From: a virus
Length of the DNA stretch: 64,000 nucleotides
Direction: 5' to 3' (one strand)
Virus record (IMG/VR): IMGVR_UViG_3300016476_001289
Shown here piece by piece: positions 45,567 through 64,000 of this stretch. Numbering within the stretch: the first letter of the stretch is position 1; the number at the start of each line of letters is the position of its first letter. The notes under the pieces are model-generated. The model saw only the letters and a program-made list of their open reading frames with translations. It was not told the DNA's origin and ran no database searches. The position numbers were made by a program, and so were the translations under genes.

Positions 45567-46010
45567 ATGGCAGAAAAACTTCTCACAGCCAATGAAAAGA
45601 CACAGGGTAAGCCTTTTCCGAACTTCAGTTTCGCAGAGCTCGAATTCTATTCTAGAATCCCTTCTGAATTAATACCTAATGCTACAACCTTATTAAAGAA
45701 TCTTCAAGCTCTTAGAGATGCTTGTGGTAAACCTATTGTAATACGATCAGGATATCGAGACGAATCTCGTCAAGCTATTGTTAACGAAAAAGTCAAAAAG
45801 TCGCAGCATTCCCTGGCTGCGGCATCGGACATTACAATTAAAGGTATGACACCTAAAGAAGTAGCAAATCTTATAGAAAAATTAATTTCTGAAAAAAAAA
45901 TGGATGAGGGCGGCATAGGCGTATATTCAGATTTTGTTCATTACGACTGTCGTTGCAACTTGACAGTTGCTAAGGATTTTCCCACAGCTCGTGCTAGATG
46001 GAATGGCTAA
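45567..46010 (+). CDS. Peptidase M15A-like (D-Ala-D-Ala carboxypeptidase/endolysin fold)
   Basis: PNFS..E, LRD..GKPI.I.SGYR, SQH....A.DI, GGIGVY.DFVH.D; GGAG RBS before MAEK. Confidence 0.88.
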   Translation: MAEKLLTANEKTQGKPFPNFSFAELEFYSRIPSELIPNATTLLKNLQALRDACGKPIVIRSGYRDESRQAIVNEKVKKSQHSLAAASDITIKGMTPKEVANLIEKLISEKKMDEGGIGVYSDFVHYDCRCNLTVAKDFPTARARWNG

Positions 46011-49000: not shown

Positions 49001-49042
49001 TATATTCTTAAAATTTTTAGCAATTTTGATTTGTTCTTGCAT
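46007..49042 (-). CDS. Fused restriction-modification enzyme (Type IIG / Type ISP-like: nuclease + N6-MTase + specificity domain)
   Basis: N-terminal D..D...LEAK nuclease motif; GVWYTP, ILDPATGTG, GNPPY; C-terminal FLKLDYPRIP...GRKLRVLH. Confidence 0.85.
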   Translation of the reverse strand: MQEQIKIAKNFKNIMEQKKKKGISGEDDCLATFKEEFLQKLFPEYNFVIQPRNCKDTDKVDLCGEYDGKIVFYLEAKNYQDPLPEDTEQIVRYMKNYPNLIYTNFEDFKFLKKNHSSYDKGNQFMLYSLKEGLFDNSGLETVSLMIEQIKGYAKEPIPISSSQELAYLLAEKAKILDTLVLSKLQNKSVSTKIHEEFDLFKDNLITSLSEEEFASLYAQIIIYGLSYAKHHSIKTSKPFSLKESHENIPSIHELLKFFLKKAITDESGEISNIENDLLLVLESIVSLLNNISSNITDFDTTYFYENFLEQYNKQMKKEKGVWYTPVEIVDFMIKSADDLFKDKLGITEGICSDEKYIDSKGKSQYKVQILDPATGTGNYLRRIVQYIHTEMKEYNWELYSPSLMDRLNAFEVMVIAYTLARLNVIEEIEKTGIKKIDKLNVFLTDSLDPSENQGLFKGADNFLKKLVKENNLTQETRNKPISLVIGNPPYLAHSTNKSDFIQNLISSYGKGRIQDDYIKFIRYGQYFIDNTGFGVLTYITNNSFLMAPTMLGVRESLLKSFDEIYILNIKGENVFEIKASVCISFFVKTGKKKPHSLGKVFYRDLIGSKEEKLKYLKENTIKDISFTELPIFTKEKFFCPLEETIYEVYSDSINTFSLHDLFDVKQTGITTSCDTLVIDSNKKDLEKKIKDFIDSDKLPPNTEIKDRGNLAKKGKGEYRQICYRCYDNRFYFDSDLTSSSSLELVKQVDIKENFYISYTKTPQEKDSFSHIFISKHPIEHKIFKGGNRVYSAPFLVHVEDPMGIYGGTQIKENIDTLHITTVFKKLDSNIEAIDIIDYCYGILHDSTYITQYNEFLKLDYPRIPYPDSMDTFTYHKEIGRKLRVLHMNLTPSINTPLYKTFSGKDYTISSFKFKGNNLYINNTSYFKDVPKAVWLYKVGSFFPIKNYLNDRKGKTLSLEELGELNNVILTIKETLSILSPESLVLELVENIEEVKEEVISSPMEELFKEFI

Positions 49043-49237
49043 GGTTGTTATGTCCTTTCAAGGACATATTATAGTAATTCGGTATGTCACTCAAGCCATA
49101 AAATTTATCTATAAGAATATTGTAAAAAGAGGGGGATGGAGAGTTTGTTTTAATTCTTCCAAGCAATGTATTATGTTGGAATATTTTTTACATATATGAT
49201 AAAATTTTAAAAATTCATCTAGAAAGGACAAATTAAA

Positions 49238-50176
49238 TTGGAAGAATTTTTAAATAAGATAATTTGTGGTGATTGTATTGAAGTCATGAAAAAGATACCG
49301 GACAATTCAATCGCTGCTTGTATAACAGACCCTCCATATAACTATGAATTTGCAGGACATAAATGGGATAAAGAAGAAATAAAAAGAAGAACAGAGCGAG
49401 TTCAAAACTCTTCTACGCTAGTAAAGAATATGCCCTACGGTAGTAGCTTGTCTGGAGGAGTGAGAAATGAAAGTTGGTACAAAAAGAATCGAGAAAATAT
49501 TGTTGAATATCAAAAATGGGTTGAAGAATGGGGTAAAGAACTTTATAGGATACTGAAGCCTGGAGCATATGTTTTTACATTTAATAGTACTAGAACAGTT
49601 GCCCATATCCAAGTAGGACTTGAAAATGTGGGTTTTTATACTAGAGATATAATAGCATGGAGAAGAAACAGTGGGATACCAAAGGGGTTAAATATAACCA
49701 AAAAACTAGAGAAGATGGGTGTAGAAGATTCTAAAAGATGGGATGGGTGGCATAGTTGTCTCCGAAATGAATGGGAAGCAATATCATTAGTTCAGAAACC
49801 ATTGTCTAATAACTATATTGAAACGATTAACCAATACAAAGTTAGTGTGCTTCATGCGAAAGTAAATGGTAAATTTCAATCAAATATAATTGAGGATATA
49901 AAGAGAGATTCAAAAGATGATTTCAATGACCACATAACAGTGAAACCCGTAGATTTAATAAAAATGTTGATTGAGATGTCAGTTCCAAAATACGAAGACA
50001 ACTTAGTTATAGATCCTTTCATGGGATCTGGTACAACGGCAGTGGCAGCTTCAAGTTTAGGGGTAGGATTTGTTGGGGTTGAGATTGATAGTGGATATGT
50101 TGAAATAGCACAGAAACGATTGGATAAGGGAGTTGAGAGTATAGATTTATCCTTTGATGGTGAAGAAGAGGATTAG
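49238..50176 (+). CDS. DNA methyltransferase, N4/N6 beta class
   Basis: ITDPPY ... HITVKP ... IDPFMGSGTT; TTG start with AAAGGA RBS. Confidence 0.92.
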   Translation: MEEFLNKIICGDCIEVMKKIPDNSIAACITDPPYNYEFAGHKWDKEEIKRRTERVQNSSTLVKNMPYGSSLSGGVRNESWYKKNRENIVEYQKWVEEWGKELYRILKPGAYVFTFNSTRTVAHIQVGLENVGFYTRDIIAWRRNSGIPKGLNITKKLEKMGVEDSKRWDGWHSCLRNEWEAISLVQKPLSNNYIETINQYKVSVLHAKVNGKFQSNIIEDIKRDSKDDFNDHITVKPVDLIKMLIEMSVPKYEDNLVIDPFMGSGTTAVAASSLGVGFVGVEIDSGYVEIAQKRLDKGVESIDLSFDGEEED

Positions 50177-50184
50177 TGGTGGGG

Positions 50185-50658
50185 TTAATCAAATCTACAC
50201 ATATCATGAATTTCTTGAATAGATTCTCTCATTAATTTCTCTTCTTTTTCTCGTTTTTCCATATTATCAAACCATTCTTTTTCGTTTTTTTCATACTCAG
50301 CTTCATCTCGACACATTTGTTCATATTCTTTAACTTCTTCAAGATATACAGGATCAGGAAAAGAGACCCATCTAAAGAAAAAATGTCCTTCTAATTGAAG
50401 ATTTTGACAATAGGACATGAGAGAATATTTAAAAATAGATCGGAAGAGAGGGGTGAGTTCGGCTTCTTTTAGGGGATGGTCATAGATAGTTTCGGGTGGT
50501 GGTGTCTCAATTAAATTTTTTGCACAGAGTAAAAAATCTTTGAGTACTTCAATTTTAAGAGAGCCATCTTCATAATAGTCATCTGAAAAGAAAGAGTATT
50601 GATAGATGATATGATCTTTTTCAATTTGGATATGGGAGATGATATAAGGTGTAATCAT
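50185..50658 (-). CDS. Hypothetical protein, paralog of 52185-52736
   Basis: Shared SLK.E.L.D, PPETIYD.PL.E.E..P, RW.S.P. Confidence 0.75.
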   Translation of the reverse strand: MITPYIISHIQIEKDHIIYQYSFFSDDYYEDGSLKIEVLKDFLLCAKNLIETPPPETIYDHPLKEAELTPLFRSIFKYSLMSYCQNLQLEGHFFFRWVSFPDPVYLEEVKEYEQMCRDEAEYEKNEKEWFDNMEKREKEEKLMRESIQEIHDMCRFD

Positions 50659-50746
50659 GAGTAATCCTTTTTAGGTAGTGGTCTCTTTATATTATATTTA
50701 TATAATACACCATTATAGAAAAAACCTAAAAAAAGGATACCCTAAA

Positions 50747-51361
50747 ATGATTAGTAAAAAGATCGCTTCTTTAGAAGAGCGTTTAGCTAGACTTGAAGCT
50801 AAATTAATCAATAAATTTGATTATCTAGAACCCATTGAAAAATCTAACTACAAGAAACATAAATCTATCAATAAATCCCTTTATCTAGAACCCATTGAAA
50901 AATCAGACTATAGAAAACATAAATCTATCAATAAATCTCTTTATCTAGAACCTATTGAAAATACTAAACATAAATTTATTGATAAATCTCTTTATGTAGA
51001 ACCCATTGAAAAATCAGACTATAGAAAACATAAATCTATCAATAAATCCCTTTATCTAGAACCTATTGAAAAATTCGATTATGTAGAACCTATTGAAAAA
51101 TCTAACTATAAGAAACATAAATCTATCAATAAATCCCTTTATCTAGAACCTATCTTAAAAAAAAGTTCATTTAAATCTATGGTTGAAATGATAGACCCTA
51201 GAACAAAAAGAGTAGAAGCAGTAGATACTTTAGATAGCTTCTATGAGAATAATATGGATGATGAAGAAGTAATAGAAGCTTTAGATGAATTGAAATCAGG
51301 TTTAAAGTCAGAAGTATTAGTCCCTACAGGACAAGGTTATTATATATTAAAGCTTAAATAG
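50747..51361 (+). CDS. KIASLE-leader protein with internal 20-aa tandem repeats
   Basis: AAAGGA RBS before MISKKIASLEERLARLEAKL; YLEPIEKS.Y.KHKSINKSL repeats. Confidence 0.75.
   Translation: MISKKIASLEERLARLEAKLINKFDYLEPIEKSNYKKHKSINKSLYLEPIEKSDYRKHKSINKSLYLEPIENTKHKFIDKSLYVEPIEKSDYRKHKSINKSLYLEPIEKFDYVEPIEKSNYKKHKSINKSLYLEPILKKSSFKSMVEMIDPRTKRVEAVDTLDSFYENNMDDEEVIEALDELKSGLKSEVLVPTGQGYYILKLK
50820..51155 (+). repeat. Intragenic 60-bp tandem repeat with in-frame shortened units
   Basis: TTATCTAGAACC(C/T)ATTGAAAAATC...CATAAATCTATCAATAAATC recurs about 6-7 times. Confidence 0.9.
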
Positions 51362-51365
51362 GATA

Positions 51366-51722
51366 TTATTTGCTGGAAGCCATATCTAATACGGACATAT
51401 CACCTACTACGGTAGCCATATCAATCACTACTGACATATCACCTGCTATAATTGATATATCCCCTACGATTGTAGCCATATCGCTTACTACAGTAGATTC
51501 CATATCAGTTGAAGAAGCCATATCACTTACGGACACATCAGCCATATCACTTACTTCGGTAACCATATCTGTAGAAGAAGCCATATCAACCACTATGGTA
51601 GACATATCAGAAGAAGTCATATCGGTGGTTGTAGCAACGGATTTAGTTTCTTTATCTCCACTACAAGCGAGAAACAAGAAAGCACTTAAAAGAATAGTAA
51701 ATAGAGTTTTCATAACTAACAC
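51366..51722 (-). CDS. Lipoprotein with Asp-Met (DM) repeats
   Basis: Signal peptide and lipobox FLAC; many DMS/DMA/DMT units. Confidence 0.75.
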   Translation of the reverse strand: MLVMKTLFTILLSAFLFLACSGDKETKSVATTTDMTSSDMSTIVVDMASSTDMVTEVSDMADVSVSDMASSTDMESTVVSDMATIVGDISIIAGDMSVVIDMATVVGDMSVLDMASSK

Positions 51723-51838
51723 CTTTTATTAGAGTTTATGTATTACACAAAACATAAAGCATAAACAAAATATTCAATACTACTTTTATAAAGTAGTATA
51801 TATAAGTATAAACTTTTATAAACAAAAGGACTCATAAA

Positions 51839-52195
51839 ATGATTAGTTCAAAAATCGCTTCTTTGGAAGCAAGATTAGCCAGACTCGAAGGCAAATTAAT
51901 GAGCAAAAAAGCTTGGGGTAAAACTCTTGAAGAAGAAGTAATGCCTCAAGTTGAAGCTGGTATTGCCGATGCAGGTGGAGAAATTGTAGATGTTAAATTA
52001 CAAAAAGGTACACACAATAGATGTCAAATGACAATTATGACTCCCAGAGGGATGAAAAGTGTAACTTGGCAAGTATTTACTGACTATGGTTACAATGAAT
52101 ATCTGTTTGAAGTAAATAATAAGATTATTCCTTCTCTAGATGAAGTTTCAGGTTATGAACTTGGTCAATACCTTGTATTGAAGGCTAGAGGATAG
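51839..52195 (+). CDS. KIASLE-leader protein
   Basis: MISSKIASLEARLARLEGKLMSKKA followed by a unique domain. Confidence 0.8.
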   Translation: MISSKIASLEARLARLEGKLMSKKAWGKTLEEEVMPQVEAGIADAGGEIVDVKLQKGTHNRCQMTIMTPRGMKSVTWQVFTDYGYNEYLFEVNNKIIPSLDEVSGYELGQYLVLKARG

Positions 52196-52736
52196 AATCA
52201 TCATCATCTTCATTAGAATGAAAATAATGATATTTACGATCTTCTTCTAAGAGTTTTTTATATTCCCCATCGTCTTCTTCTATTTCTTTTTCTAATTCTT
52301 CTATTAAGATCTCCCTTTCGAGCTTCTCGTAAAAGGCTGCTTCTCTCATCTCTTGTTCTATCATAGATCTGATTTCTTCTCTTTCTTCAAGAAGTTCTTT
52401 CAACTCACCAAAGATACATTTATCAAAAGCATAAGGAATAGGGTATGAAATCCACCTAGTAGTATTTTCTCTCTCAAAAGAATTACAGAAACCAGCATTT
52501 AATTGAAGACCAAATTTCTCAAGGATAGGAGAAATCTCACATTCTCTTAATGGACGGTCATAAATAGTCTCAGGTGGGGTGTAATTAGAAAATGGTTGTA
52601 GGTGAGAGATAAGATCTCTAAGGATTTCTGTTTTGAGAGATTGGTCTGGTAAATAATCAGTAGGTTGGAAGAAATATTCGTAATGGATATTATTGTGACT
52701 GAAACTAATCACAAAGTAAAGATGATTACTATTCAT
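52185..52736 (-). CDS. Hypothetical protein, paralog of 50185-50658
   Basis: Shared motifs; acidic coiled-coil tail. Confidence 0.75.
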   Translation of the reverse strand: MNSNHLYFVISFSHNNIHYEYFFQPTDYLPDQSLKTEILRDLISHLQPFSNYTPPETIYDRPLRECEISPILEKFGLQLNAGFCNSFERENTTRWISYPIPYAFDKCIFGELKELLEEREEIRSMIEQEMREAAFYEKLEREILIEELEKEIEEDDGEYKKLLEEDRKYHYFHSNEDDDDSIL

Positions 52737-52790
52737 AGTATTCCTTTGTTGTGGGTTTATAATGTATTATATTAAGAGGAGAATAGTAAG

Positions 52791-53072
52791 ATGAAAGAAT
52801 TAGATGATTATGATGTTTTATTATGTTTGATCTACCATTTACATCCATTTTTAGTAATGGATGTAGCTAAAGAGATACATATAAAGCCTGAAGAATTAGG
52901 TTTTATCCTAAGTGTGTTTAAAGACCACCCTGTAATATTAAAGCATAAAGAAGAAGCATTAAAAAATGATAATTATATAAGAGATATGGTTATTGGTATA
53001 TTTGAAGGGACTATATATAAAGAGGCTATCCTTTCGCTCTTTCTCTTGAATGAATCCCCCAATAGAACATAA
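52791..53072 (+). CDS. Hypothetical protein
   Basis: 93 aa, GAGGAG RBS. Confidence 0.6.
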   Translation: MKELDDYDVLLCLIYHLHPFLVMDVAKEIHIKPEELGFILSVFKDHPVILKHKEEALKNDNYIRDMVIGIFEGTIYKEAILSLFLLNESPNRT

Positions 53073-53799
53073 TTTTTAATCGGGGGCTTAAAAAAGGTGT
53101 AGCTTCTTCTGGATCTTCACTATAAGCTTCAATAGCGACATCGAAATCATCTTGAAATTTTTTACCTACATATTCTATAAGACTAGGGTTCTTTTTGACT
53201 GCTTCTAAGACAAGTATTTTACTTTGTTTTAAAGTAGGTGAAAGAAAGATAAAATTAGTGGGGTCTGCCTTAACACAAGCAAAGGCTATATCAAAATCAT
53301 CATTATAAGAATTAAGTAGTTTATCTAATAAGTGGATGGCATAACCTGAATCAGACATAATATTAAAATCATTTCTAATATAGATTTTAGGGTCATCACA
53401 TAAGGGAAGAATGAAGTTCTTATCTTTTAGTAGTTTTGTGGGTAATTTACTAAGAAATCTTGAATCTATTGAACAGATAAGATTAGCTTTCTTTTTAGTA
53501 GTAATAGTGAAGTGTTGGGATAAGAACCATTCCATATTATATAAGAAGATAGGTTCATTTAGTGCTATTTCAATAGGTGTTAAGTCCCAAGTTAGTTCTT
53601 CAGTATCTAAAACAAGATCATCATCATATTTATCTACATTAGTAGTAAAAACTTCTGTGATATCCAGAGAAGTACATAGTAGTTGAAGGACTTCCTTATC
53701 CTTAGGTTTAGCTAAGGTGTATAGGCAAATATCTCTATTTTCAATAGATTTTTCAAAGAGTATAACTTTCATATAGTCTATCTCACTTTCATTGAACAT
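53026..53799 (-). CDS. DUF4116-like repeat protein
   Basis: DDFDIAFACVK..., LKQSKILVLEAVKKNP.LIEYV...QDDFDVA repeats. Confidence 0.7.
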   Translation of the reverse strand: MFNESEIDYMKVILFEKSIENRDICLYTLAKPKDKEVLQLLCTSLDITEVFTTNVDKYDDDLVLDTEELTWDLTPIEIALNEPIFLYNMEWFLSQHFTITTKKKANLICSIDSRFLSKLPTKLLKDKNFILPLCDDPKIYIRNDFNIMSDSGYAIHLLDKLLNSYNDDFDIAFACVKADPTNFIFLSPTLKQSKILVLEAVKKNPSLIEYVGKKFQDDFDVAIEAYSEDPEEATPFLSPRLKIMFYWGIHSRERAKG

Positions 53800-53946
53800 A
53801 TTATATGAAAGTGGAAAATAAAAAAGGGAACATCTGTTAAGACATTCCCTTTTCTACAAAAAAACTAACCAACCAACACAAAAAAGTGTTTGTTAAAATG
53901 TTTATAGCATAACTTATATAAACTAGCAAATTTATTAAGAGAAAAA

Positions 53947-54150
53947 ATGTACGAGATGTTATTTATGGGGCAACCTATACTTGTTTATGATGTATCTAGT
54001 GCTATAAGAGAAGGTTTAGTCTTTAAGGTGAAACAAATAAGTCTATATAAGACAGGTGAAGATACCTTGTTTTTCTTAGAATTAAAGAGTGGGATACATT
54101 ATAAGATTTTATTAGAATATTTAGATAGTGGGTGGAAGATCGTTAAATAA
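53947..54150 (+). CDS. Small hypothetical protein
   Basis: 67 aa ORF filling the gap. Confidence 0.45.
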   Translation: MYEMLFMGQPILVYDVSSAIREGLVFKVKQISLYKTGEDTLFFLELKSGIHYKILLEYLDSGWKIVK

Positions 54151-54691
54151 GTTTATCTACAAGACCATGTTTTAAACATTCTTCTGAATTAAACCATAGG
54201 TCTCTTTTAAGCATTTTTACAATTTGTTTCTTTTTAAGTTTAGAGTGTTTTTTATAGAACTTATAAAATTGTTCCATGAGTTTATCTAGGTTTGCTTTTT
54301 CATCTTTAAGGTTTTCATAAGTGCCTTCAGTCCATTGACTTACTTGATGAATAAGCATATAGCCATATTCTTGCATGAATCTCTTCTTACCCACCATAGA
54401 CAATAAAGTACCTGCACTAGCGACACCACCTTCTACATAGGTATAAACAGGTACTTTATTATTTAAAATATGACCTGCCCCAGCAAGACCGCTATATACA
54501 TCACCACCATAAGAGTGGATATGTAGGTGGATAACGGGTGGGATTTCTAAATCATAGGTGAGTTGTCTATCTAGGGATAATTGAGTAGCTTCTCTTAAAG
54601 TGCTGACTAATCCTTGAATTGATTTAGGATTTACTTCATCATAATAGTAGATATGTAAGTCTTTTCTTGTGATACCAGAAGATTCTAACAT
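54143..54691 (-). CDS. clpP: ClpP-like serine protease
   Basis: IHSYGGDVYSG, GGVASAG (catalytic Ser), MLIHQ (His), RDLWFNSEECLKHGLVD. Confidence 0.85.
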   Translation of the reverse strand: MLESSGITRKDLHIYYYDEVNPKSIQGLVSTLREATQLSLDRQLTYDLEIPPVIHLHIHSYGGDVYSGLAGAGHILNNKVPVYTYVEGGVASAGTLLSMVGKKRFMQEYGYMLIHQVSQWTEGTYENLKDEKANLDKLMEQFYKFYKKHSKLKKKQIVKMLKRDLWFNSEECLKHGLVDKLI

Positions 54692-54763
54692 TTAAAATAG
54701 CCTTTCTTTTATTTATTAAATACATAGCATATTTATGAAAAGTCTAAATTCAAGGAGCTATGT

Positions 54764-55816
54764 ATGTCATGTAAGATACCAGCAGGGTCAGTAGCGACCC
54801 TAGTACAAGGGAATAAAGTTCTCTTTGATGGTGTATTATACAATCTAGATGATTGTGTGATAGAAAAAGGTGTACATTTTGAGACAAAAGCTAATGTAAA
54901 AGAAGTAGGTGTCGATTCACCTAAATCCGAAGCTAATGAATCAAATGAACAAAAAACAGAAGAACCTAAACCTAAAAAGTTTAAGAAACCTGTTGTTAAA
55001 CCATCCTCAGTGGATGAAAATATTGAAAATACTCAAGTACCACAACCACAAAAAAAGGATGATGAAATGGGATTACCTGTTCAAGCACCTCAAGATTCTA
55101 CACCAGGACAAGGGCAACCTGTTCAACCTATACAACAACCTGTAGGTTATCCACAACAACCTATGCAACCACCTGTAAATATGCAACTTCCACAAGGGTA
55201 TGCTTTACCTCCAGGATTTACTGTTCCACAACAAGCACAACAATACATTCCACAACAATTCATGCCTCAACAACCACAAGAGACTCATGCCACCACTGAA
55301 CATAATCAAGATGGTATGGATATGAACATGATTAAGACTATCTTGAACATAGCAGGGGATAATCCTGTTGTTCTCGTAGCCTTAATTGGTGCATATCTAG
55401 GTTTCACCTGGATGAAGAAGATGGAAAAGATCAAAGAAAAAGAAGCTGAAAATGGTGGTCAACACGCATCAGCTTGTGATAGTGATCGTAAGAGTCTTAA
55501 TTCTAAATTCTCTGATATGGACTTTAAAGTTCAAAAAATCGATATGCTTGAAAATAAAGTTAAGCAAATGGGTGATGTTAATGGTCGTCTTACTAAACTT
55601 GAAGAAAATAGTAATGGTTTAACCTTTAATGACACCACAGAACTTGAAGAAGCTTTAGCTAAAGTAGTTAAGAAAGTAGAAGCTCTTGATAAGAAGATTG
55701 CGTCATTAGTTGCAGGAACAACAGCACCTAAAGCAGTAGAACCTGTTAAGAAACCTACTAAAGCTAAAGAAACTAAATCTGTTGCAGAATTTCCACCTGA
55801 AGAAGATGATGAATAA
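54764..55816 (+). CDS. Membrane protein with Pro/Gln-rich region, one TM helix and coiled coil
   Basis: PQ-rich middle; VVLVALIGAYLGFTW; heptad-rich C-terminus. Confidence 0.7.
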   Translation: MSCKIPAGSVATLVQGNKVLFDGVLYNLDDCVIEKGVHFETKANVKEVGVDSPKSEANESNEQKTEEPKPKKFKKPVVKPSSVDENIENTQVPQPQKKDDEMGLPVQAPQDSTPGQGQPVQPIQQPVGYPQQPMQPPVNMQLPQGYALPPGFTVPQQAQQYIPQQFMPQQPQETHATTEHNQDGMDMNMIKTILNIAGDNPVVLVALIGAYLGFTWMKKMEKIKEKEAENGGQHASACDSDRKSLNSKFSDMDFKVQKIDMLENKVKQMGDVNGRLTKLEENSNGLTFNDTTELEEALAKVVKKVEALDKKIASLVAGTTAPKAVEPVKKPTKAKETKSVAEFPPEEDDE

Positions 55817-55878
55817 TTTTATATAATCGTATTTCTTATTTGTATAGTATGAGTTGAACTTTTAAAAAAAGGAAACTC

Positions 55879-56634
55879 ATGTTAAAATATCTCCCTATAT
55901 TATTGTTTATGTTTGCTTGTTCTAAAAATGAAGCACAACCTGTTGTTGTTAAAGATCAAGGTATTGTTGTTGTAAAAGACAAGTCTCTACCACTCGATCA
56001 AAGTCTACCTGAAAAAGACCAAGAAGTTAAAGCAGTAGACCCTGACAAAAAACACCCAATCCCTGAAACTGTTGATTGTGAAAAGTTCTTTACTGCTGAG
56101 GGGATTGCAGAAGCACATAAAACCAATTCACCTTATATTGCCGACAAAGAATATTTCTTGATTGAAAAAAATGCTGACTATGTTTTAACATTAAGACTAG
56201 GTTATCTACCACAAGAAAAGTTCCTTGCTATTTTCATGACAACAGCGGGGAAGAAAAAAGTCTGTTATGATAAAGAAACATCACTCATGTTCACTCTTTT
56301 ACATGATGAAGATACTGGAGAGAGAAGAAGCTATATGCTAGATGGTATCCACAATCAAAATTGTGGTACTGCTCGTAAGGTTCAAGATAAGAACAAAGCA
56401 GTAGGCATTTACTTAGTGCCTGAAAGAAGTAAGTTCTTTCAGTTTGCTATGGTTGCAAGAAGTATAGGTGCTTGGGCAATTATGGAGCATAAGAATTATA
56501 AAGGTATTGTAGGTCAACATTATAGTGAAAACCATTCACTTGCTTTAATGAATGGTTTTAGATGTGCTTATAAAGCTATGGGGTATACTCATCTCACAGT
56601 AACAAATTTACTCGATAACACAGTGAAAGACTAA
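55879..56634 (+). CDS. Lipoprotein, paralog family member 1
   Basis: Signal and lipobox MFAC; DCEK...RCAY.A.G. Confidence 0.75.
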   Translation: MLKYLPILLFMFACSKNEAQPVVVKDQGIVVVKDKSLPLDQSLPEKDQEVKAVDPDKKHPIPETVDCEKFFTAEGIAEAHKTNSPYIADKEYFLIEKNADYVLTLRLGYLPQEKFLAIFMTTAGKKKVCYDKETSLMFTLLHDEDTGERRSYMLDGIHNQNCGTARKVQDKNKAVGIYLVPERSKFFQFAMVARSIGAWAIMEHKNYKGIVGQHYSENHSLALMNGFRCAYKAMGYTHLTVTNLLDNTVKD

Positions 56635-56637
56635 GCT

Positions 56638-57378
56638 ATGTATAAATATCTATTAATTGTTGTATGTTTATTCTCTTGTAATAAGCAAACAGAAGCTCAA
56701 GAGAAGCAACCTGAAGTTAAACAAACTCAAACGGAAGTTAAACAAACTGAACCTGTTAAAGTAGCAGAACCCGTTAAGGTTAAAAACGGCAGTCTTAATA
56801 TCCCTAAAGGTAAAGATTGTGAAAAGCATCTCCCTAAAGATGCCCTTAAACAAAGTAAAAAAAATGATGGATATTACATCCCTAAAGAATCTTTTTGGTT
56901 TGTGAATATGAAAGGCGAAGGTGTATTATTAGCTAATTTCACGGTTGTAGACATGAAATTAAAGTTCACAGTCAATCTCTTGAATGGTAATAAAGTTAAC
57001 TGTATTGAAGAGAATAGTGATCTTGGTATTAGATTTAATAAACATCAAATCCATATCCTTGAATCTAAGTTCCCAAGAAACTGTAATGACCCAAGCAAAA
57101 CAGAGGAAAGAGTCGGTGCTATGGCTATTTATACACTTCCTTTAAATAGCACTCTTTTTAAAGAACTCTTATTAAAACCTGTTGAGTTTTTAGGTATAGA
57201 ATTAAAAGGAAAAGGGTATGCTTTTTTTCAAGTTACGAAAGAAGAAACCCCTATCGAACTACAAAATGCTGCTAGATGTGCTTATGAAGCATTTGGTGGA
57301 GCAGATCAAATTAACTTAGAAGATGAGGATTTCTTAATAGATACTCTAGCACATCCAGATGAAAATTCAAACGAGTAA
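56638..57378 (+). CDS. Lipoprotein, paralog family member 2
   Basis: LFSC lipobox; IPKGKDC, PLNSTLFKELL, LQNAARCAY. Confidence 0.78.
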   Translation: MYKYLLIVVCLFSCNKQTEAQEKQPEVKQTQTEVKQTEPVKVAEPVKVKNGSLNIPKGKDCEKHLPKDALKQSKKNDGYYIPKESFWFVNMKGEGVLLANFTVVDMKLKFTVNLLNGNKVNCIEENSDLGIRFNKHQIHILESKFPRNCNDPSKTEERVGAMAIYTLPLNSTLFKELLLKPVEFLGIELKGKGYAFFQVTKEETPIELQNAARCAYEAFGGADQINLEDEDFLIDTLAHPDENSNE

Positions 57379-57379
57379 A

Positions 57380-58015
57380 ATGATGAAATACTATTTATTA
57401 ATGATTCTTATTGTTGTCTCTTCTTGTAAGGACAAAGAAAAAGTTAGTATCCCTAAAGGAAAAGACTGTGATGTCTATTTCCCACAAGATGCTATGGCTC
57501 AAAGTAAAAAAAATAATAACTTCTTTATTAATGAAAGAAGATCTATTTACACTGGAGATGAAGGGATCTTATTAACTAATCTCCTTATCAAAGACACTAA
57601 ATTCCACCTAGCTATTAATATCTTAAATGGTAATAAAGTCATTTGTATAAAAGAAAATAGTCTTCTTGGTGTAAGAATATTTGAAAATAATAACACCCAT
57701 TTAATCAAAGGCGATTTTGACAGAAATTGTAAACAACAATCTGACCCTAAAGGTAATGGGGCAATAGGATTATTTGAAGTTCCTTTAAATAGCACTTTAT
57801 TTAAAGAACTCCTAACAAAAAAAGTAGGTGTCATTGGTGTAGGTTTAGATAATGTTAATGCTTTATTTAAGCCATTAGACCAAGAAACTGCTTTAGATTT
57901 ACAAAATGCTGCTAGATGTGCTTATGATGCTTTTGGTGGAGAAGAGACTATTAATTTATCTAATGATAATCTTCTTATAGACACTGTTTATCATGTAGAT
58001 AAGCCAAACGATTAA
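57380..58015 (+). CDS. Lipoprotein, paralog family member 3
   Basis: VSSC lipobox; same motifs as 56638; start shifted to MMKYY. Confidence 0.78.
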   Translation: MMKYYLLMILIVVSSCKDKEKVSIPKGKDCDVYFPQDAMAQSKKNNNFFINERRSIYTGDEGILLTNLLIKDTKFHLAINILNGNKVICIKENSLLGVRIFENNNTHLIKGDFDRNCKQQSDPKGNGAIGLFEVPLNSTLFKELLTKKVGVIGVGLDNVNALFKPLDQETALDLQNAARCAYDAFGGEETINLSNDNLLIDTVYHVDKPND

Positions 58016-58439
58016 TAATCTTTTTATAGATATAGATATATAGATATAAACATAACATAATAAGGAGTCTCCCATGAGATACCCACATATAACCAGAAGA
58101 GCTAGTTCTTTTTATTCACGAAGAGCTTCAGCTTCAGCTCCCTATGCAAAATGGAATCATGAAATCTTGAATATCAAAGAAGAAACCTATGTGTTTTTAG
58201 ATGAAGCTTTGAAAAAAATCGCTAGATTGAATAATGAATTAGTTCAAACCGCAGTCGAAGCGCAAGATCCAGAAGTTAAAAAAATCCTTAATTCTTTATT
58301 AAAATTGTATCAAACCTACCAAACTTCTCTCTATGAGAAAGCAGGTGATATACAAGAAGATTTAGGAAATGAAGTTGGTCATTCTTGGTAATATCTTCTT
58401 ATAGATATTGCTTATCATGTAGATAAGCCAAACGATTAA
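57969..58439 (+). repeat. 47-bp direct repeat pair (57969-58015 and 58393-58439) flanking one gene
   Basis: ATCTTCTTATAGA(C/T)A(C/T)TG(T/C)TTATCATGTAGATAAGCCAAACGATTAA, 44/47 identical. Confidence 0.9.
58074..58391 (+). CDS. MRYP-leader helical protein
   Basis: TAAGGAG RBS; MRYPHITRRASSFYSRRASA. Confidence 0.75.
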   Translation: MRYPHITRRASSFYSRRASASAPYAKWNHEILNIKEETYVFLDEALKKIARLNNELVQTAVEAQDPEVKKILNSLLKLYQTYQTSLYEKAGDIQEDLGNEVGHSW

Positions 58440-58671
58440 ATATAAAATTTAATAATTCAACATTTCCTTTCTGACTATTTACTAGATACTCTACATAATC
58501 TAATCTTCTAGGGTCTTCTTCTTTTTTAAGACATAAACCTGCATATAAAACGATTAGATCAAAGTATTTGGTATTAACATTTAATTCAGTAAGACTCTTT
58601 TCTATATCTAACTTTCTTAAACTTCGTAAGAATTGTGCTTCATATTGAAGTTGTCTTTCTCTTGTGTACAT
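58399..58671 (-). CDS. Hypothetical protein
   Basis: 90 aa, AAGGA RBS. Confidence 0.6.
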   Translation of the reverse strand: MYTRERQLQYEAQFLRSLRKLDIEKSLTELNVNTKYFDLIVLYAGLCLKKEEDPRRLDYVEYLVNSQKGNVELLNFIFNRLAYLHDKQYL

Positions 58672-58682
58672 AGAGATTTCCT

Positions 58683-59438
58683 TTAAAATAGAGTGGATGC
58701 TTCACCTTGTATATAATTACAAGCTAGTTTATAATATGTAGGATCTAATTCTATCCCTACTGATTTTCTATTTAATCTTTGTGCTTCTATAAGAGTTGTC
58801 CCTGATCCTGTAAAAGGATCAAAAATAGTGTCTCCTACAAAACTAAAGTATTTAATACACCTATAAGGTAAATCAGATGGGAATGGTGCAGGGTGCTTTC
58901 TATGTGTAGCTGATTCAGGTTTCATTTTCCATAAACCATTAGACCATGAAACAAATTCTTCACCTGTAATATCATCTTCACGCTTAATAGCTTTTTTCCA
59001 AGAATCTTTATAGAAAACAAGAATAAGTTCAGTAGGAGATATAATCAAAGGTGCAGATGCTGATTTATATGACCCCCATGCTGTCCCACCTTCAAAATAG
59101 CCTTTATCCCAAATAACATCACATTTATACTTCCAACCTATTTCTTTAGCTATGTAGCATAAATCGGGACCTATAGTCTTAGAACCACCTAATGTGGTGG
59201 AAAATGGAATATTTAAACACAAACGACCTGTTGTATTACTCCAATCATAACAATTCTTTAACCATTTACGACTAAACTCTAAATACTCATCATATTGTAG
59301 AGTGTCATCATTTGAATTATATTCAATCCCAACATTATAAGGTGGGGATGTTATAATAAGATCAATAAATGGTTCTTGAAATAAAGAACTATCCGTACAA
59401 TCTCCATGATATAACTTCACATCTCTAAACTCAAACAT
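58683..59438 (-). CDS. DNA methyltransferase, N4-cytosine/N6 beta class
   Basis: ITSPPYN, HPAPFP, FDPFTGSGTT. Confidence 0.92.
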   Translation of the reverse strand: MFEFRDVKLYHGDCTDSSLFQEPFIDLIITSPPYNVGIEYNSNDDTLQYDEYLEFSRKWLKNCYDWSNTTGRLCLNIPFSTTLGGSKTIGPDLCYIAKEIGWKYKCDVIWDKGYFEGGTAWGSYKSASAPLIISPTELILVFYKDSWKKAIKREDDITGEEFVSWSNGLWKMKPESATHRKHPAPFPSDLPYRCIKYFSFVGDTIFDPFTGSGTTLIEAQRLNRKSVGIELDPTYYKLACNYIQGEASTLF

Positions 59439-59470
59439 TCTTAAATGTCCTTTCTTTTTCTTGTCTTATA

Positions 59471-60235
59471 TTAAAATAATGTTTGTTGCTTTACATTTTC
59501 TTCATTTAACCATACCACTTCATTAAACTCTTTCATTTGGCAATTTAATATTGTCTTTAAAGGTTTAAAGGGCAACCATGTTGCTTTTTCTCCCTCACAG
59601 ACTATTACTTGCCCCTCTCTTCCTTTACACCATTCACCTAAATGACTAAAATCTATTTTATTAGATGAATGAGCATATCCCTTACCTTCATGTTGATAAG
59701 GTGGGTCGATAAACCAAGTAGCTTGTTCATTATCTATATCTTCATAAGACTTTTGTTCTATTGTCCAATGACGAATATGTTCTAATTGTTCTGCTATTTT
59801 AATCTTATTTAATTCAGTCCATGTGTTATAATTTCTAGGTTTATATACTTCACCTGATTTAGATATAAATCCTTGAACTGATTTCATACTACGACTTGTC
59901 CATTTAGTATCAGGTCTATAATTAGATGAATGTATCCAATAACCTATTAACCATTTAGCTTCTTGGGGGATATTATAATCATTGACTGATTTGTCAAAAT
60001 CTATCATAGGCAAGTCTAAGATTTCTTCTTTCTTAGCATGGATAAGATAATCCCACAGACCACAGATAACATCATATTTGTCATATAACTTAACTTGTTT
60101 ATGTGGGTAATGTAAGGCATAACAAGCAGACCCTGCAAATGGTTCTATTAGTATATTATGTTTAGGTGAAGGGTAGTGTTTAGCTAAATTATATTTACTA
60201 CCAAAGTAGCTAAAAAATGGTTTAAGTGGTTTCAT
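59471..60235 (-). CDS. Dam-like (D12 class) DNA adenine methyltransferase, copy 1
   Basis: FSYFGSK, IEPFAGSA, FIDPPY. Confidence 0.88.
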   Translation of the reverse strand: MKPLKPFFSYFGSKYNLAKHYPSPKHNILIEPFAGSACYALHYPHKQVKLYDKYDVICGLWDYLIHAKKEEILDLPMIDFDKSVNDYNIPQEAKWLIGYWIHSSNYRPDTKWTSRSMKSVQGFISKSGEVYKPRNYNTWTELNKIKIAEQLEHIRHWTIEQKSYEDIDNEQATWFIDPPYQHEGKGYAHSSNKIDFSHLGEWCKGREGQVIVCEGEKATWLPFKPLKTILNCQMKEFNEVVWLNEENVKQQTLF

Positions 60236-60295
60236 TTTTTTTCCTTTATAGGATGAATATATATAATGTTAAACTATTATTATAGGAGATATACC

Positions 60296-60727
60296 ATGAT
60301 TAACTCAAAAATCGCTTCATTAGAAGCAAGATTAACTAGACTCGAAGGCAAATTAATGAGCAAAAAAGCAGGACATCAAATGCCTGACCCTGCTCTCGTA
60401 AAATTTCAAATCAAGACCCTTTTAAAAGAAGGTGCATATCAATTAGAAGGTTTTGAAGTTAAAGCATTAAGCCCACTTTCTTACTTTCCTGCTACCCATG
60501 CCATTCGTATTGTATGTATTAATGATCAAGGTAATTCAGTTGTACTTGATCTTCATTGTAGCAACAATGTAATTGTTGGACAAACATTGAATGTTTTCGA
60601 TCATATGTATAATACTAAAGTTGTTTATAATAACAGCAATGAAGATTTAGGTGGAGATTTTATTGGTGAAGATTTAACCAAACCAAGTACCGTAAGAGAT
60701 CTTATCAGTTTATTACAATTACAATAA
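60296..60727 (+). CDS. KIASLE-leader protein
   Basis: AGGAG RBS before MINSKIASLEARLTRLEGKLMSKKA; unique payload. Confidence 0.8.
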   Translation: MINSKIASLEARLTRLEGKLMSKKAGHQMPDPALVKFQIKTLLKEGAYQLEGFEVKALSPLSYFPATHAIRIVCINDQGNSVVLDLHCSNNVIVGQTLNVFDHMYNTKVVYNNSNEDLGGDFIGEDLTKPSTVRDLISLLQLQ

Positions 60728-60731
60728 ACCA

Positions 60732-61466
60732 TTAGAATAAAGTTCTTTGTCTTATATTATTCTCATTTAACCATACCACCTCTTCAGTCCTACCACCTCC
60801 ACTATTTAATATCGTCTTTAAAGGTTGAAAAGGTAACCATTTAGCTTTATCACTTTCACAGACTATTACTTGTCCTTCTCTTCCTTTACACCATTCACCT
60901 AAATGACTAAAATCTATATTCTTTGAACTCTCTTTATAGACTTTCCCTTCACTCTCATAAGGTGGATCTATAAACCATGTAGCTTCTTCATTATCTATTA
61001 TATCATAAGACTTTTGTTCTATTGTCCAATGTCTTATATCATCCACCTGATTTGCTATTCTTTTCTTAGTAGTAGGATTCCAAGAATCTGCCCATTCTAT
61101 TTCAAATCTCTCACTAGCATAAGATGACATTTTAGTAGCAGGTATAGACCTAGCTTTAACTAACCAAAATCCTATTAACCATTTAGCTTCTTGTGGGATA
61201 TTAGGATAATCATCTATACTCTTACCTAATTCTATTAAAGGTAAATCTAATATCTCTTCTTTTTTCACCTTAATTAAGTAATCCCATATCCCACAAATAG
61301 CATCATATTTGTCATATAACTTAACTTGTTTATAGTGATAATGAAGAGCATAACAAGCAGATCCTGCAAAGGGTTCTATTAGAACATTGTATCTAGGTGA
61401 AGGATAATGTTTAGCTAAAAAGTATTTACTACCAAAATAGCTAAAAAATGGTTTAAGGGGTTTCAT
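60732..61466 (-). CDS. Dam-like DNA adenine methyltransferase, copy 2
   Basis: Close paralog of 59471-60235 with a divergent central segment. Confidence 0.88.
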   Translation of the reverse strand: MKPLKPFFSYFGSKYFLAKHYPSPRYNVLIEPFAGSACYALHYHYKQVKLYDKYDAICGIWDYLIKVKKEEILDLPLIELGKSIDDYPNIPQEAKWLIGFWLVKARSIPATKMSSYASERFEIEWADSWNPTTKKRIANQVDDIRHWTIEQKSYDIIDNEEATWFIDPPYESEGKVYKESSKNIDFSHLGEWCKGREGQVIVCESDKAKWLPFQPLKTILNSGGGRTEEVVWLNENNIRQRTLF

Positions 61467-61526
61467 TTTTTTTCCTTTTATTTTATATCTAAGAATATAT
61501 GAAACTATTATTATAGGAGATATACC

Positions 61527-61931
61527 ATGATTAACTCAAAAATCGCTTCTTTAGAAGCAAGATTATCTAGACTCGAAGGCAAATTACAAAGAAGAATTGC
61601 TTCATCTTTCCCAACGAGAGAAGAATTTATAGAACTATTAGAGAGAAATTCTAGAGGTTGGTTCTCTAATTGGACTTGGATGGAAGGATTTAGTGATGGA
61701 CTACCCACAGAATATAAAAAGAGTATAGTTATGGGAGTACCTTCAAATAATGAAAGATTGTCGGTTACTCTTCTTTTTACTGAAGCTTTTGCTAAAGGCA
61801 CAATAACAATTAGAATTACCACCTTAAATGCAGATTTTAAAAAGAACCTTAAAACAGTACAATATAATTTAGATGATTTTTATACAACAGATGTAAATCA
61901 TCTTCTTGACACAATAAAAAGCATGATGTAA
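61527..61931 (+). CDS. KIASLE-leader protein
   Basis: MINSKIASLEARLSRLEGKLQRRIAS; unique payload. Confidence 0.8.
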   Translation: MINSKIASLEARLSRLEGKLQRRIASSFPTREEFIELLERNSRGWFSNWTWMEGFSDGLPTEYKKSIVMGVPSNNERLSVTLLFTEAFAKGTITIRITTLNADFKKNLKTVQYNLDDFYTTDVNHLLDTIKSMM

Positions 61932-61937
61932 TTTGTC

Positions 61938-61965
61938 TTTACTCTATTTAAATTTATAGAGTAAA
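61938..61965. terminator. Possible hairpin terminator
   Basis: TTTACTCTAT-N8-ATAGAGTAAA just after the stop at 61931; AT-rich stem. Confidence 0.3.
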
Positions 61966-62003
61966 ATGGTGATTTCCTGTATAATATTTTCAGAAGACTT
62001 TCT

Positions 62004-62360
62004 ATGTTTAAAACTACTCAAATAAATGATTTTATCATCACCGATTTTATAGACGATTCTCAATATAAATATGTTTTAGGCGACTTACACGATTTAGATT
62101 GGGAAATGTCTTTATCAGGTGCTTGGTTTCAAGCTATTCTATTTTGTAATAAGTTAAGTGAAATTTATAATTTACCTTATGCTTATCTTGTATTTAAAGA
62201 TGAAAAAGGTAATTTGGAAGCTGAAGATACAGGTAAAAATGGAATAAGACTACCAAGTCCAAAACTTCAAATCTCTTTATATGAAGATGAATTAACTGAA
62301 GAGAATGATAAAGGTAATAGATTTAGGGTGTGGATGTATTCTTCTCAACCCAGTAATTAG
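62004..62360 (+). CDS. Degenerate/truncated FGE-sulfatase-like protein
   Basis: WFQAILFCNKLS..YNLPYAY...GIRLPS matches the N-terminal half of 12006; catalytic-core motifs missing. Confidence 0.55.
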   Translation: MFKTTQINDFIITDFIDDSQYKYVLGDLHDLDWEMSLSGAWFQAILFCNKLSEIYNLPYAYLVFKDEKGNLEAEDTGKNGIRLPSPKLQISLYEDELTEENDKGNRFRVWMYSSQPSN

Positions 62361-62775
62361 CACCTCTTCTAGCAGAATCTTTATTTTTATATCCCACCAT
62401 AGTTGCTATTTCTGACCATTTAAGTCCTTTTTCTCTTAATTCAAAAGCAACTCTTCCTCTACTTTTTCTTGTATTTTCTATTTCTATTCCTGTTCTATCT
62501 CTATATTTATAAAAGTTATCTCTAAGAGTTCTAATGGGCATACCTAATAATCTTGCTATATCTTTATGAGTCATACCAAGTTTTGCGAGGGTGTTCGCAT
62601 ACTCTATCATTTTGCTATTATTTGGCTTATTTAGGTTATTTAAAACTTCCCATTTGTATGCTTTTCGCCTAGCATTTCTATCACTGATGCCTAAAACTTC
62701 ACCTACTTCGATCCATTTCATACCTTGAGATTTTAACTCATAAGCTAATTTCCACCCTTCATAATCAGCTTTCAT
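62323..62775 (-). CDS. Protein with three tandem HTH motifs
   Basis: GMKWIEVGEVLGIS, GMTHKDIARLLGMP, GLKWSEIATMVGY. Confidence 0.75.
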   Translation of the reverse strand: MKADYEGWKLAYELKSQGMKWIEVGEVLGISDRNARRKAYKWEVLNNLNKPNNSKMIEYANTLAKLGMTHKDIARLLGMPIRTLRDNFYKYRDRTGIEIENTRKSRGRVAFELREKGLKWSEIATMVGYKNKDSARRGANYWVEKNTSTP

Positions 62776-63062
62776 TTCTCAATCCCCTTTATAGCTTCAT
62801 ATATGTTTCTATATGTTTCTGTATTCTCACCACACTCAACGACAACTTTTTTAATTGCCTGTCCCTTATAATCAAAAGTCATGTTATATAAAGTATAACC
62901 TATATTAAAATCTACTTTTATGATTTCAATGTTAGGTGGTTTTATTTCACTTTCTGATTTAAGGATATTAGCACCAAGTTGGGTTTTTAAAATGCGAGGT
63001 ATAGCATTTTTATGGCTATATACACCTATGTTGTAAGGTATATTAATATTATTGACTTTCAT
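62772..63062 (-). CDS. Hypothetical protein
   Basis: 96 aa, coupled to the HTH gene. Confidence 0.55.
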   Translation of the reverse strand: MKVNNINIPYNIGVYSHKNAIPRILKTQLGANILKSESEIKPPNIEIIKVDFNIGYTLYNMTFDYKGQAIKKVVVECGENTETYRNIYEAIKGIEK

Positions 63063-63076
63063 ATCTACACTTCCTT

Positions 63077-63427
63077 GTGAGATTTACGATGAATATGAGT
63101 GAACAAAAAAAACTTTTTGAACATATCTTTAATACCACAGAGGGTATTACATTACTAGATGTTGTTGTATTACCTAGTGTTTTATCAGGTGACACGACCC
63201 ATCAAATTAGAGTTGAGTATAAAAACCCTAAAGGACTAACCGTATTAAATGTGAATATAGATGAGATACTTATTAAAGAAGTAATTATAAGAGTCCATCA
63301 AGGTGGTAGATTACCTTATGGTGAATATACTAAAGGCAAAGTTATAACAAAACTAGGTGATTTTAGAGGTAAGAAAATTAAAACAGATGTGATAGACAAG
63401 TTAGCTTATGAGTGTTCTTATACTTAA
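63077..63427 (+). CDS. Hypothetical protein
   Basis: 116 aa; start uncertain. Confidence 0.55.
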   Translation: MRFTMNMSEQKKLFEHIFNTTEGITLLDVVVLPSVLSGDTTHQIRVEYKNPKGLTVLNVNIDEILIKEVIIRVHQGGRLPYGEYTKGKVITKLGDFRGKKIKTDVIDKLAYECSYT

Positions 63428-63472
63428 TTTATAGAAAAAGATAGGTGAACTATAAAATGAGTGAACTTGTAA

Positions 63473-63808
63473 ATGAAAAGATTTGCTAGACTAGAAAATC
63501 GTATATCTCAAATAAAGTACGACACTTTATTCTATTACTTAAAATTAAAATTAGATACAGGCATTCTTGTGTTGGAAGATTTAACTACACATGAGAATTC
63601 TTTATATATGAGATATGGTTATGATAAAATATGTCTGTATATTTACATAGAAAATTCTAGTAATGTCGTAGGGTATATAGATATATATATGAAGTATCAA
63701 CCTGATAATTTAAAAAGTGCTTTTCCCATATCTTTACCTATATCTAATATAGATGGGATAGCTAAGGTGATAGCAACTAAAATAAACAAGTATTTAGAAA
63801 CTCACTAA
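63473..63808 (+). CDS. Hypothetical protein with eroded KIASLE-type leader
   Basis: MKRFARLENRI resembles RLARLENKL. Confidence 0.55.
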   Translation: MKRFARLENRISQIKYDTLFYYLKLKLDTGILVLEDLTTHENSLYMRYGYDKICLYIYIENSSNVVGYIDIYMKYQPDNLKSAFPISLPISNIDGIAKVIATKINKYLETH

Positions 63809-63855
63809 TTAGTTTATATACATATTGTTAGAAGTACATATAGGAGAGATATAAA

Positions 63856-64000
63856 ATGATTCGTAATAAAATTGCTTCTCTTGAAGCTCGTTTAGCTAGA
63901 CTTGAAAATAAGTTAGCAGCTAAACAAGTTGACTATAACTTATGGCAACTTTACGAAAAGCTAGTAAGAGAACTAGAAACTGAAGGCTATTATACTGATA
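63856..64000 (+). CDS. KIASLE-leader protein (truncated by window end)
   Basis: Hand translation MIRNKIASLEARLARLENKLAAKQVDYNLWQ...; AGGAG RBS. Confidence 0.8.
   Translation, partial: MIRNKIASLEARLARLENKLAAKQVDYNLWQLYEKLVRELETEGYYTD

Follow-up and report, generated by a model that had tools for sequence, protein, structure and literature searches.

A conserved N-terminal leader on unrelated small proteins of uncultured huge phages is a candidate cleavable prohead-targeting sequence

We analysed a family of small genes in a stretch of viral DNA 64,000 nucleotides long (IMG/VR record IMGVR_UViG_3300016476_001289; the window hereafter), whose products begin with the same short amphipathic helix, here called the leader. 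The family is modular, with a constant leader joined to many unrelated payloads. The best-supported mechanism for the leader is a packaging tag that would be removed by a protease; it is favoured because a motif at the junction between leader and payload is conserved, and because the same motif is concentrated in three proteins of a related phage: one that is scaffold-like, the head protease and the major head protein. We infer docking, cleavage, packaging, ejection and the roles of the payloads from the patterns described below, and judge the chances about even that the leader is an N-terminal propeptide which directs small proteins to the prohead and is afterwards removed.

Five leader genes lie on the + strand of the window and are referred to by their start coordinates:

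50747-51361, + strand: leader gene 1, 204 residues; leader helix at residues 1-25 and a C-terminal 62-residue beta-beta-alpha-alpha-beta-beta domain at residues 143-204.
51839-52195, + strand: leader gene 2, 118 residues; junction S-K-K-A at residues 22-25 and a payload without relatives.
60296-60727, + strand: leader gene 3, 143 residues; junction S-K-K-A-G and an alpha-beta4-alpha payload with orthologues in related phages.
61527-61931, + strand: leader gene 4, 134 residues; junction R-R-I-A-S and a singleton payload.
63856-64000, + strand: leader gene 5, truncated by the window edge; its full-length relative, P0006, has 149 residues.

A preliminary description of this DNA had reported a leader of about 20 residues shared by five + strand open reading frames (ORFs). 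Alignment bears this out: the five sequences have the consensus M-I-x-x-K-I-A-S-L-E-x-R-L-x-R-L-E-x-K-L and agree fully at 15 of their first 20 positions. The degenerate DNA pattern for K-I-A-S-L-E occurs at five sites in the window, which are the five leader ORFs (0.54 expected); none of 100 shuffles reached five. BLASTP similarity among the proteins stops after residue 20-25 in most pairs and runs up to residue 48 in one, and no significant similarity is left among them once the leader is stripped off. The leader proteins matched no Pfam or PHROG family.

The boundary is equally sharp in the DNA. Over their first 60 nt the leader genes are 0.68-0.97 identical, rising to 0.90-0.97 among 51839, 60296 and 61527, the three for which near-identical leader DNA had been claimed. 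Identity 75 nt into the genes is 0.23-0.37, which is the random level; 51839 and 60296 have an additional 15 nt in common beyond the first 60. Each of the five ATG codons has an AGGA or GGAG ribosome-binding site shortly 5' of it, as had been remarked for four of the genes. Two alternative upstream starts (GTG at 50678 and ATG at 60266) were rejected, as neither has a ribosome-binding site and the N-terminal position of the motif throughout the family also opposes them. Four of the genes had been described as single + genes set against minus-strand genes. This holds for 50747, 51839 and 60296, which are solitary and flanked by minus-strand genes; 61527 is followed by another + gene.

The window is part of an uncultured huge phage, since one of its proteins is located on a contig of 371,667 bp; it also encodes tail-fibre proteins of 1,100-1,700 residues, a clamp loader and many DNA methyltransferases. 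The spread of the leader was measured with a profile, a check that the preliminary description had proposed. A leader profile of 32 columns, searched against 1.84 billion representative proteins at a threshold of E <= 1e-3, gave 67 matches, 60 of which begin within the first five residues of proteins of about 30-260 residues. The remaining seven are internal coiled-coil segments in unrelated proteins. A DNA-pattern scan of metagenome contigs found at least 120 loci, with about 70 N-terminal leader ORFs among the matches listed; there are several to a contig, and the contigs reach 300 kb. Searching IMG/VR with a degenerate pattern identified a related phage, G001 (316,221 bp, rated 100% complete), whose core proteins are 40-75% identical to those of the window. 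G001 carries at least 10 clear leader genes and further divergent ones, and no payload orthologous to a window payload. Merging the profile matches, the metagenome loci and G001 gives at least 106 distinct leader proteins with a median length of 144 residues, which fall into 44 payload groups as defined by BLASTP at 1e-4. No leader was found in LR745208.1 (485 kb, uncultured), the nearest deposited record by clamp loader. The tag thus appears to be confined to one clade, as this more distant phage carries none.

The payloads behind this common leader are diverse. Profile-profile comparison with hhalign of 316 of the 946 group pairs gave a single pair above 80% probability, which is borderline; all others equalled the reversed-sequence control. 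In a Pfam scan of 20 payloads, DUF4116 alone scored above its cut-off (31.1 bits, cut-off 24.9) and no toxin family was matched. The DUF4116 payload, representing one group, is an all-helical repeat, and the same family is also present without a leader in the window at 53026-53799. The predicted mature parts of the payloads have a median length of 115 residues and are mostly acidic, with a median isoelectric point of 5.5. A polymorphic toxin system, with its cognate immunity gene downstream, was considered and rejected, given the lack of toxin family matches among the payloads scanned and the nature of the downstream genes, which have nothing in common and for the most part run in the other direction.

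Payload folding and structure searches, also proposed in the preliminary description, were carried out on two groups and yielded differing topologies with no convincing structural relative. The AlphaFold2 model of the 60296 group (nine sequences; mean predicted local distance difference test score, pLDDT, 66.6) has a free leader helix at residues 3-22, a disordered linker and a 110-residue alpha-beta4-alpha domain. In the model of the 50747 group (fourteen sequences) pLDDT is 86-90 for the leader, below 50 for a set of repeats and about 90 for the C-terminal 62-residue domain, whose beta-beta-alpha-alpha-beta-beta topology is unlike that of the 60296 payload. The repeats are a 60-bp x 4.7 tandem array in the linker of 50747 (50800-51074) that inserts about 116 residues. 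As the linker is disordered in both models and tolerates an insertion of this size, it is predicted to behave as a tether. Alignment places the 50747-type domain of relatives directly after the leader, in duplicate, or joined to a second domain, so that the payloads themselves appear to be modular. The 60296 model had no Foldseek match at E <= 0.001, and its best VIA match (Z 7.3, to RWD/Mediator-like alpha-beta4-alpha domains) is within the range typical of unmatched models. Foldseek returned nothing for the 50747 domain, for which the best VIA match had Z 5.8, and nothing usable came from the ESM Atlas for 61527 or 51839. Neither family scans nor structure searches revealed a recognizable payload function. 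The number of payload groups, the DUF4116 payload and the two topologies together uphold the earlier notion of a constant leader with a variable payload.

With each payload group represented by a single member, the core of the leader reads M-[IF]-x-x-K-[IL]-A-S-L-E-A-R-[IL]-A-R-L-E, 17 near-invariant residues. The leader has regular heptads in which I2, I6, L9, L13, L16 and L20 occupy positions a and d, glutamate position e, and arginine or lysine position g. The A, S, L, E and R residues of the core are present in 44/44 groups, including those at heptad positions b, c and f. Synonymous sites at the invariant residues are saturated: arginine is encoded by CGT 25 times and by AGA 22 times, and leucine by five codons. 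Selection therefore appears to act on the peptide, and on every face of the helix, because residues are invariant on all faces while synonymous codons vary freely. This is what would be expected of a peptide read by a specific partner, unlike a generic coiled coil or a DNA or RNA element; conservation at the DNA or RNA level is ruled out by the synonymous saturation of the invariant codons. A Sec, Tat or lipoprotein signal peptide, which would have a hydrophobic core of 10 or more residues behind a basic N-region, was also rejected on direct reading of the sequence: no hydrophobic run occurs, and charged residues are spaced no further than four or five positions apart.

Within the leaders, a GCTTC/GAAGC hairpin arises from the codons for A-S-L-E-A at 51855-51872, 60312-60329, 61543-61560 and 63874-63887 (minus strand). 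On the minus strand a T-run follows three of these four hairpins, giving a score like that of an intrinsic terminator. The variation of codons in the family suggests that the hairpin is incidental; the T-run hinges on whether lysine is encoded by AAA or AAG, which are used about equally.

Beyond the helix, the leader proteins share a short junction. In 34/44 payload groups a [KR]-x-A-[SGAT] motif falls in the 16 residues that follow the leader, usually 4-5 residues past the helix; its frequency is 1.3% in payload windows and 8.3% in shuffles matched for composition. The basic-x-Ala junction pointed out in the preliminary description is thus a conserved motif. What follows the motif differs in length between proteins and has an abundance of S, K, R, T and A.

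Variants of the leader keep this motif. P0077, an orthologue of the 60296 payload, has the variant leader R-R-A-S-L-R-R-R-L-A-G, in which the acidic residues are replaced. Four small genes of G001 at 149825-152386 (minus strand; L019:9825-12386), beside two canonical leader genes, share the opening M-[YF]-[ST]-Q-R; in three this leads into two to three R-L-A-S-L-R units, in the fourth into a single R-L-A-S-L-L unit with K-K-A-S behind it. By their sequence these genes appear to carry a second type of leader. A 105-residue ORF of the window (58074-58391, + strand) has R-R-A-S units at residues 8 and 16 and no K-I-A-S-L-E helix, and its N terminus may be another protease-processed tag. The [KR]-x-A-S unit common to these variants points to a protease motif.

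The same motif marks the head module of G001. Among the 328 ORFs of G001 that were scanned, enrichment of [KR]-x-A-[SGA] is strongest in a 694-residue ORF (287738-289822) whose product is scaffold-like: very acidic and coiled-coil, with leucine-zipper-like repeats. Its [KR]-x-A-[SG] sites number 12, where shuffling of the protein's own sequence predicts 1.64, and none of 5000 shuffles reached 12. Its gene is directly downstream of a homologue of head-maturation proteases (289836-291320; phrog_18299, 9.7e-15), in which motif sites at residues 25 and 267 flank the PHROG-matched region 115-260. The portal gene (phrog_16240, 1.9e-32) precedes the protease by three genes. The major head protein (phrog_2522, 1.3e-51) is encoded two genes downstream, and its sole motif site is at residues 27-30. 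Moreover, S-K-K-A-S and S-R-T-A-S are found both in the scaffold-like protein and at leader junctions. A further ORF of 967 residues (306638-309541, minus strand; L027:6638-9541) has nine evenly spaced sites against 1.42 expected, again reached by 0/5000 shuffles, and may be a polyprotein or an internal head protein cut into pieces of about 100 residues. This distribution is the one that would be expected of the cleavage motif of a maturation protease. Neither a gp21-type (S77) protease nor a gp23-type capsid protein was found in G001 (no match to PF03420 or PF07068).

The remaining features of the window that bear on the leader genes are as follows:

63457-63808, + strand: decayed leader gene; the present ORF is 63473-63808 and the former start at 63457 is out of frame.
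63077-63427, + strand: leaderless ORF, 116 residues; domain weakly like the 60296-type payload, not secure.
59471-61931: tandem duplication of a Dam-like methyltransferase (PF02086, minus strand) with a leader gene (+ strand); homology stops at leader codon 20.
54143-54691, minus strand: ClpP-related protease; best family matches are phage head-maturation proteases.

The tandem duplication captures the exchange of payloads. Its two units (59471-60727 and 60732-61931) carry methyltransferases that are 66% identical in protein, and their DNA is mostly alignable. Between the ribosome-binding site and leader codon 20 the units are identical at 85/87 nt, after which identity falls abruptly to random. 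With one synonymous difference in 20 codons, the 87-nt tract looks like the product of recent conversion or recombination. In different phages, three leader subtypes precede the 60296-type payload. Comparison of these sequences thus supports exchange of payloads at the leader boundary, as had been suggested from the conserved leader DNA.

Closer relationships exist at the end of the window. The gene at 63473 had been called an eroded sixth leader gene, and it does retain the second half of the leader. Upstream of it, at 63457, an ATG preceded by a ribosome-binding site opens a different frame, which a stop closes after ten codons. This arrangement fits the loss of about 20 nt within the leader, by which its first half was deleted. 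The payload of 63473 has a homologue in P0006 (E 6e-10), the full-length counterpart of the 63856 gene; 63473 and 63856 are therefore tandem paralogues, one of which has lost the tag. The earlier statement that the payloads are mutually dissimilar is accordingly correct for most of them and incorrect for this pair. For the leaderless ORF at 63077, comparison of its domain with the 60296-type payload gave an hhalign probability of 56% (E 1e-4), a likeness that is weak and not secure.

The protein encoded at 54143-54691 matches PF00574 (88.9 bits), phrog_94 (1.6e-34) and NF045542 (100 bits, under its cut-off of 120), and scores higher with families of head-maturation proteases than with ATP-dependent ClpP. 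By these scores it is a candidate, though not the sole one, for the enzyme that would act on the tag.

These observations suggest how the leader could work. The layout comprises a 17-residue amphipathic helix, a [KR]-x-A-[SG] motif shortly after it, a flexible linker of varying length and a small globular payload. The helix would dock each precursor on one shared component of the assembling prohead, probably the acidic scaffold with its leucine-zipper-like repeats. The head-maturation protease would then cut at [KR]-x-A|[SG], and the payload, freed inside the capsid, would be ejected with the DNA. A portable tag together with recombination in the conserved leader DNA would allow new small proteins to be brought into the virion. 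A fuller version, which we offer tentatively, is a modular cargo code in a clade of uncultured huge phages: the helix would dock on the zipper-like repeats of the scaffold and [KR]-x-A|[SG] would release the payload; the at least 44 groups would be injected proteins that act before phage gene expression, for example as defence inhibitors; recruitment would take place through about 60 nt of conserved DNA; and the R-L-A-S-L leaders would be parallel addresses.

The heptads might instead denote a short leucine zipper, through which small effectors oligomerise or dock on a non-virion hub in the infected cell, with neither packaging nor cleavage. The placement of hydrophobic and charged residues fits this idea, as do the free helix ahead of a flexible linker in the AlphaFold2 models, weak matches to PF16331 and PF16326 (trimerisation and coiled-coil families, both below cut-off) and the string K-I-A-S-L-E-E-R-I-x-x-L-E within long coiled-coil proteins of metagenomes. 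However, conservation is just as strict at positions b, c and f as it is at a and d, which is unusual for self-association and points to a specific partner, and 17 residues are short for a stable coiled coil. A zipper also leaves unexplained the strict N-terminal position, the [KR]-x-A-[SG] junction and the sharing of that junction with head-module proteins, and we consider it unlikely. More doubtful still is an N-terminal degradation or regulatory tag, by which, for example, a phage ClpP-related enzyme with a host unfoldase would clear early proteins at a set time. A ClpP-related gene does lie among the leader genes (54143-54691), the tag is strictly N-terminal and the disordered linker could serve as an initiation site; yet the ClpP-like protein is closer to head-maturation protease families than to ATP-dependent ClpP, degrons seldom need 17 invariant residues, and the presence of the motif in the scaffold-like protein, major head protein and head protease points to head assembly.

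We regard as very improbable that the proteins are an ordinary family of fast-evolving paralogues with a single fold, of which only the N-terminal helix is still recognizable. True paralogues do exist, namely the 63473/63856 type and two G001 genes that are 83% identical; many payloads have, by eye, a helix, several strands and a C-terminal helix; and 63077 is weakly like the 60296 payload. Against a common fold stand the all-helical DUF4116 repeat and the difference between a 62-residue beta-beta-alpha-alpha-beta-beta domain (50747) and a 110-residue alpha-beta4-alpha domain (60296). In the tandem duplicates, identity collapses at the leader boundary although the flanking genes are mostly alignable. 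Full-length homology of the payloads, which the preliminary description had named as the mark of such a family, was not seen: BLASTP and hhalign comparisons (hhalign on 316 of the 946 group pairs) equalled the reversed control except in a few pairs.

Several observations weigh against the leader being a cleaved packaging propeptide. Cleavage at [KR]-x-A is read solely from the distribution of the motif, and the K-I-A-S of the leader core fits that motif too, which makes the position of the cut ambiguous. There are two candidate proteases, the ClpP-related one of the window and the head-module one of G001, and the link between motif and head proteins comes from the related phage G001. The leader genes stand among methyltransferase and small accessory genes, away from the head genes. 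Similarity between leaders is 0.60 within a contig and 0.54 between contigs, so that co-evolution with a genome-specific partner is not evident. Finally, the phage has no cultured relative: deposited phages have no DNA-level match to the window, and the leader genes have no DNA or protein match in cultured or deposited phages.

The neighbourhood of the leader genes is rich in DNA methyltransferases. Five such genes, at 46007-50176 and 58683-61466 and thus all inside one stretch of 16 kb, are interleaved with leader genes: one Type ISP/Eco57I-like (1011 residues), two N6_N4 and two Dam-like. This setting is compatible with, and does not itself argue for, an anti-restriction role of the payloads.

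Other genes nearby have features of their own. The ORFs at 50185-50658 and 52185-52736 (both minus strand) are paralogues (31% identity, E 3e-20) without a family match that flank the first two leader genes; G001 has a single homologue of the pair, at 30594-31109. The region 55879-58015 (+ strand) encodes three tandem paralogous predicted lipoproteins, with a cysteine after a hydrophobic N terminus followed by S/N/K and acidic residues, and none of the three has a PHROG or Pfam match. A predicted lipoprotein-like ORF with D-M-A/S-rich repeats (51366-51722, minus strand) overlaps an equally long + strand ORF at 51370-51732.

If the leader does direct proteins into the prohead, it would be a second, independently evolved capsid-targeting system with a different address and a different protease code, in huge phages that have not yet been grown. 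At least 44 families of small proteins would be marked as probable injected effectors, giving an entry point to new anti-defence proteins. The [KR]-x-A|[SG] rule alone would make the processing of head proteins predictable from sequence across the clade, and the tag, being portable, could be used to bring foreign proteins into large capsids.

Loading of protein cargo into phage heads is known in detail mainly from T4. The internal proteins of T4 share only an N-terminal capsid targeting sequence (CTS) of 10-19 residues, which is removed by gp21 and is sufficient for loading foreign proteins (PMC9026906, PMC3012670). Like the CTS of IPI, IPII, IPIII and Alt, the leader is a short N-terminal sequence, here a putative propeptide, on otherwise unrelated small proteins (60/67 profile matches are N-terminal, and there are 44 payload groups). 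The CTS ends in the motif of the phage's own head protease; the leader ends in a motif that is concentrated in head-module proteins of G001 and may be the site of such a protease. In both systems the loci are polymorphic, payloads are exchanged between related phages and the genes lie outside the head gene cluster. The leader has no sequence similarity to the CTS and is longer, with about 25 residues to the putative cut (17-residue helix plus linker) as against 10-19. Its putative site is [KR]-x-A|[SG] rather than L/I-x-E, and its payload types, at least 44 and mostly acidic, are far more numerous than the T4 internal proteins. By analogy, then, the leader would be at most a functional counterpart of the CTS, because it matches T4 neither in homology nor in the type of protease.

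In the giant phages phiKZ, 201phi2-1 and SPN3US, N-terminal propeptides of head proteins, some of them 20-24 residues long, are cut by the prohead protease (PMC10052503). These propeptides, which are found on head and ejection proteins, resemble the leader in their N-terminal position and in their short motif, in the leader a putative protease site; they differ in that no single sequence is common to many unrelated proteins and in the motif itself, A/S/G-x-E. Outside phages, the encapsulation peptides of bacterial microcompartments consist of an amphipathic helix of about 18 residues, followed by a poorly conserved flexible linker and a cargo domain. This succession of helix, linker and cargo is also the architecture of the leader proteins. 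Unlike the leader, encapsulation peptides are not conserved in sequence, are uncleaved and have a bacterial shell as their target.

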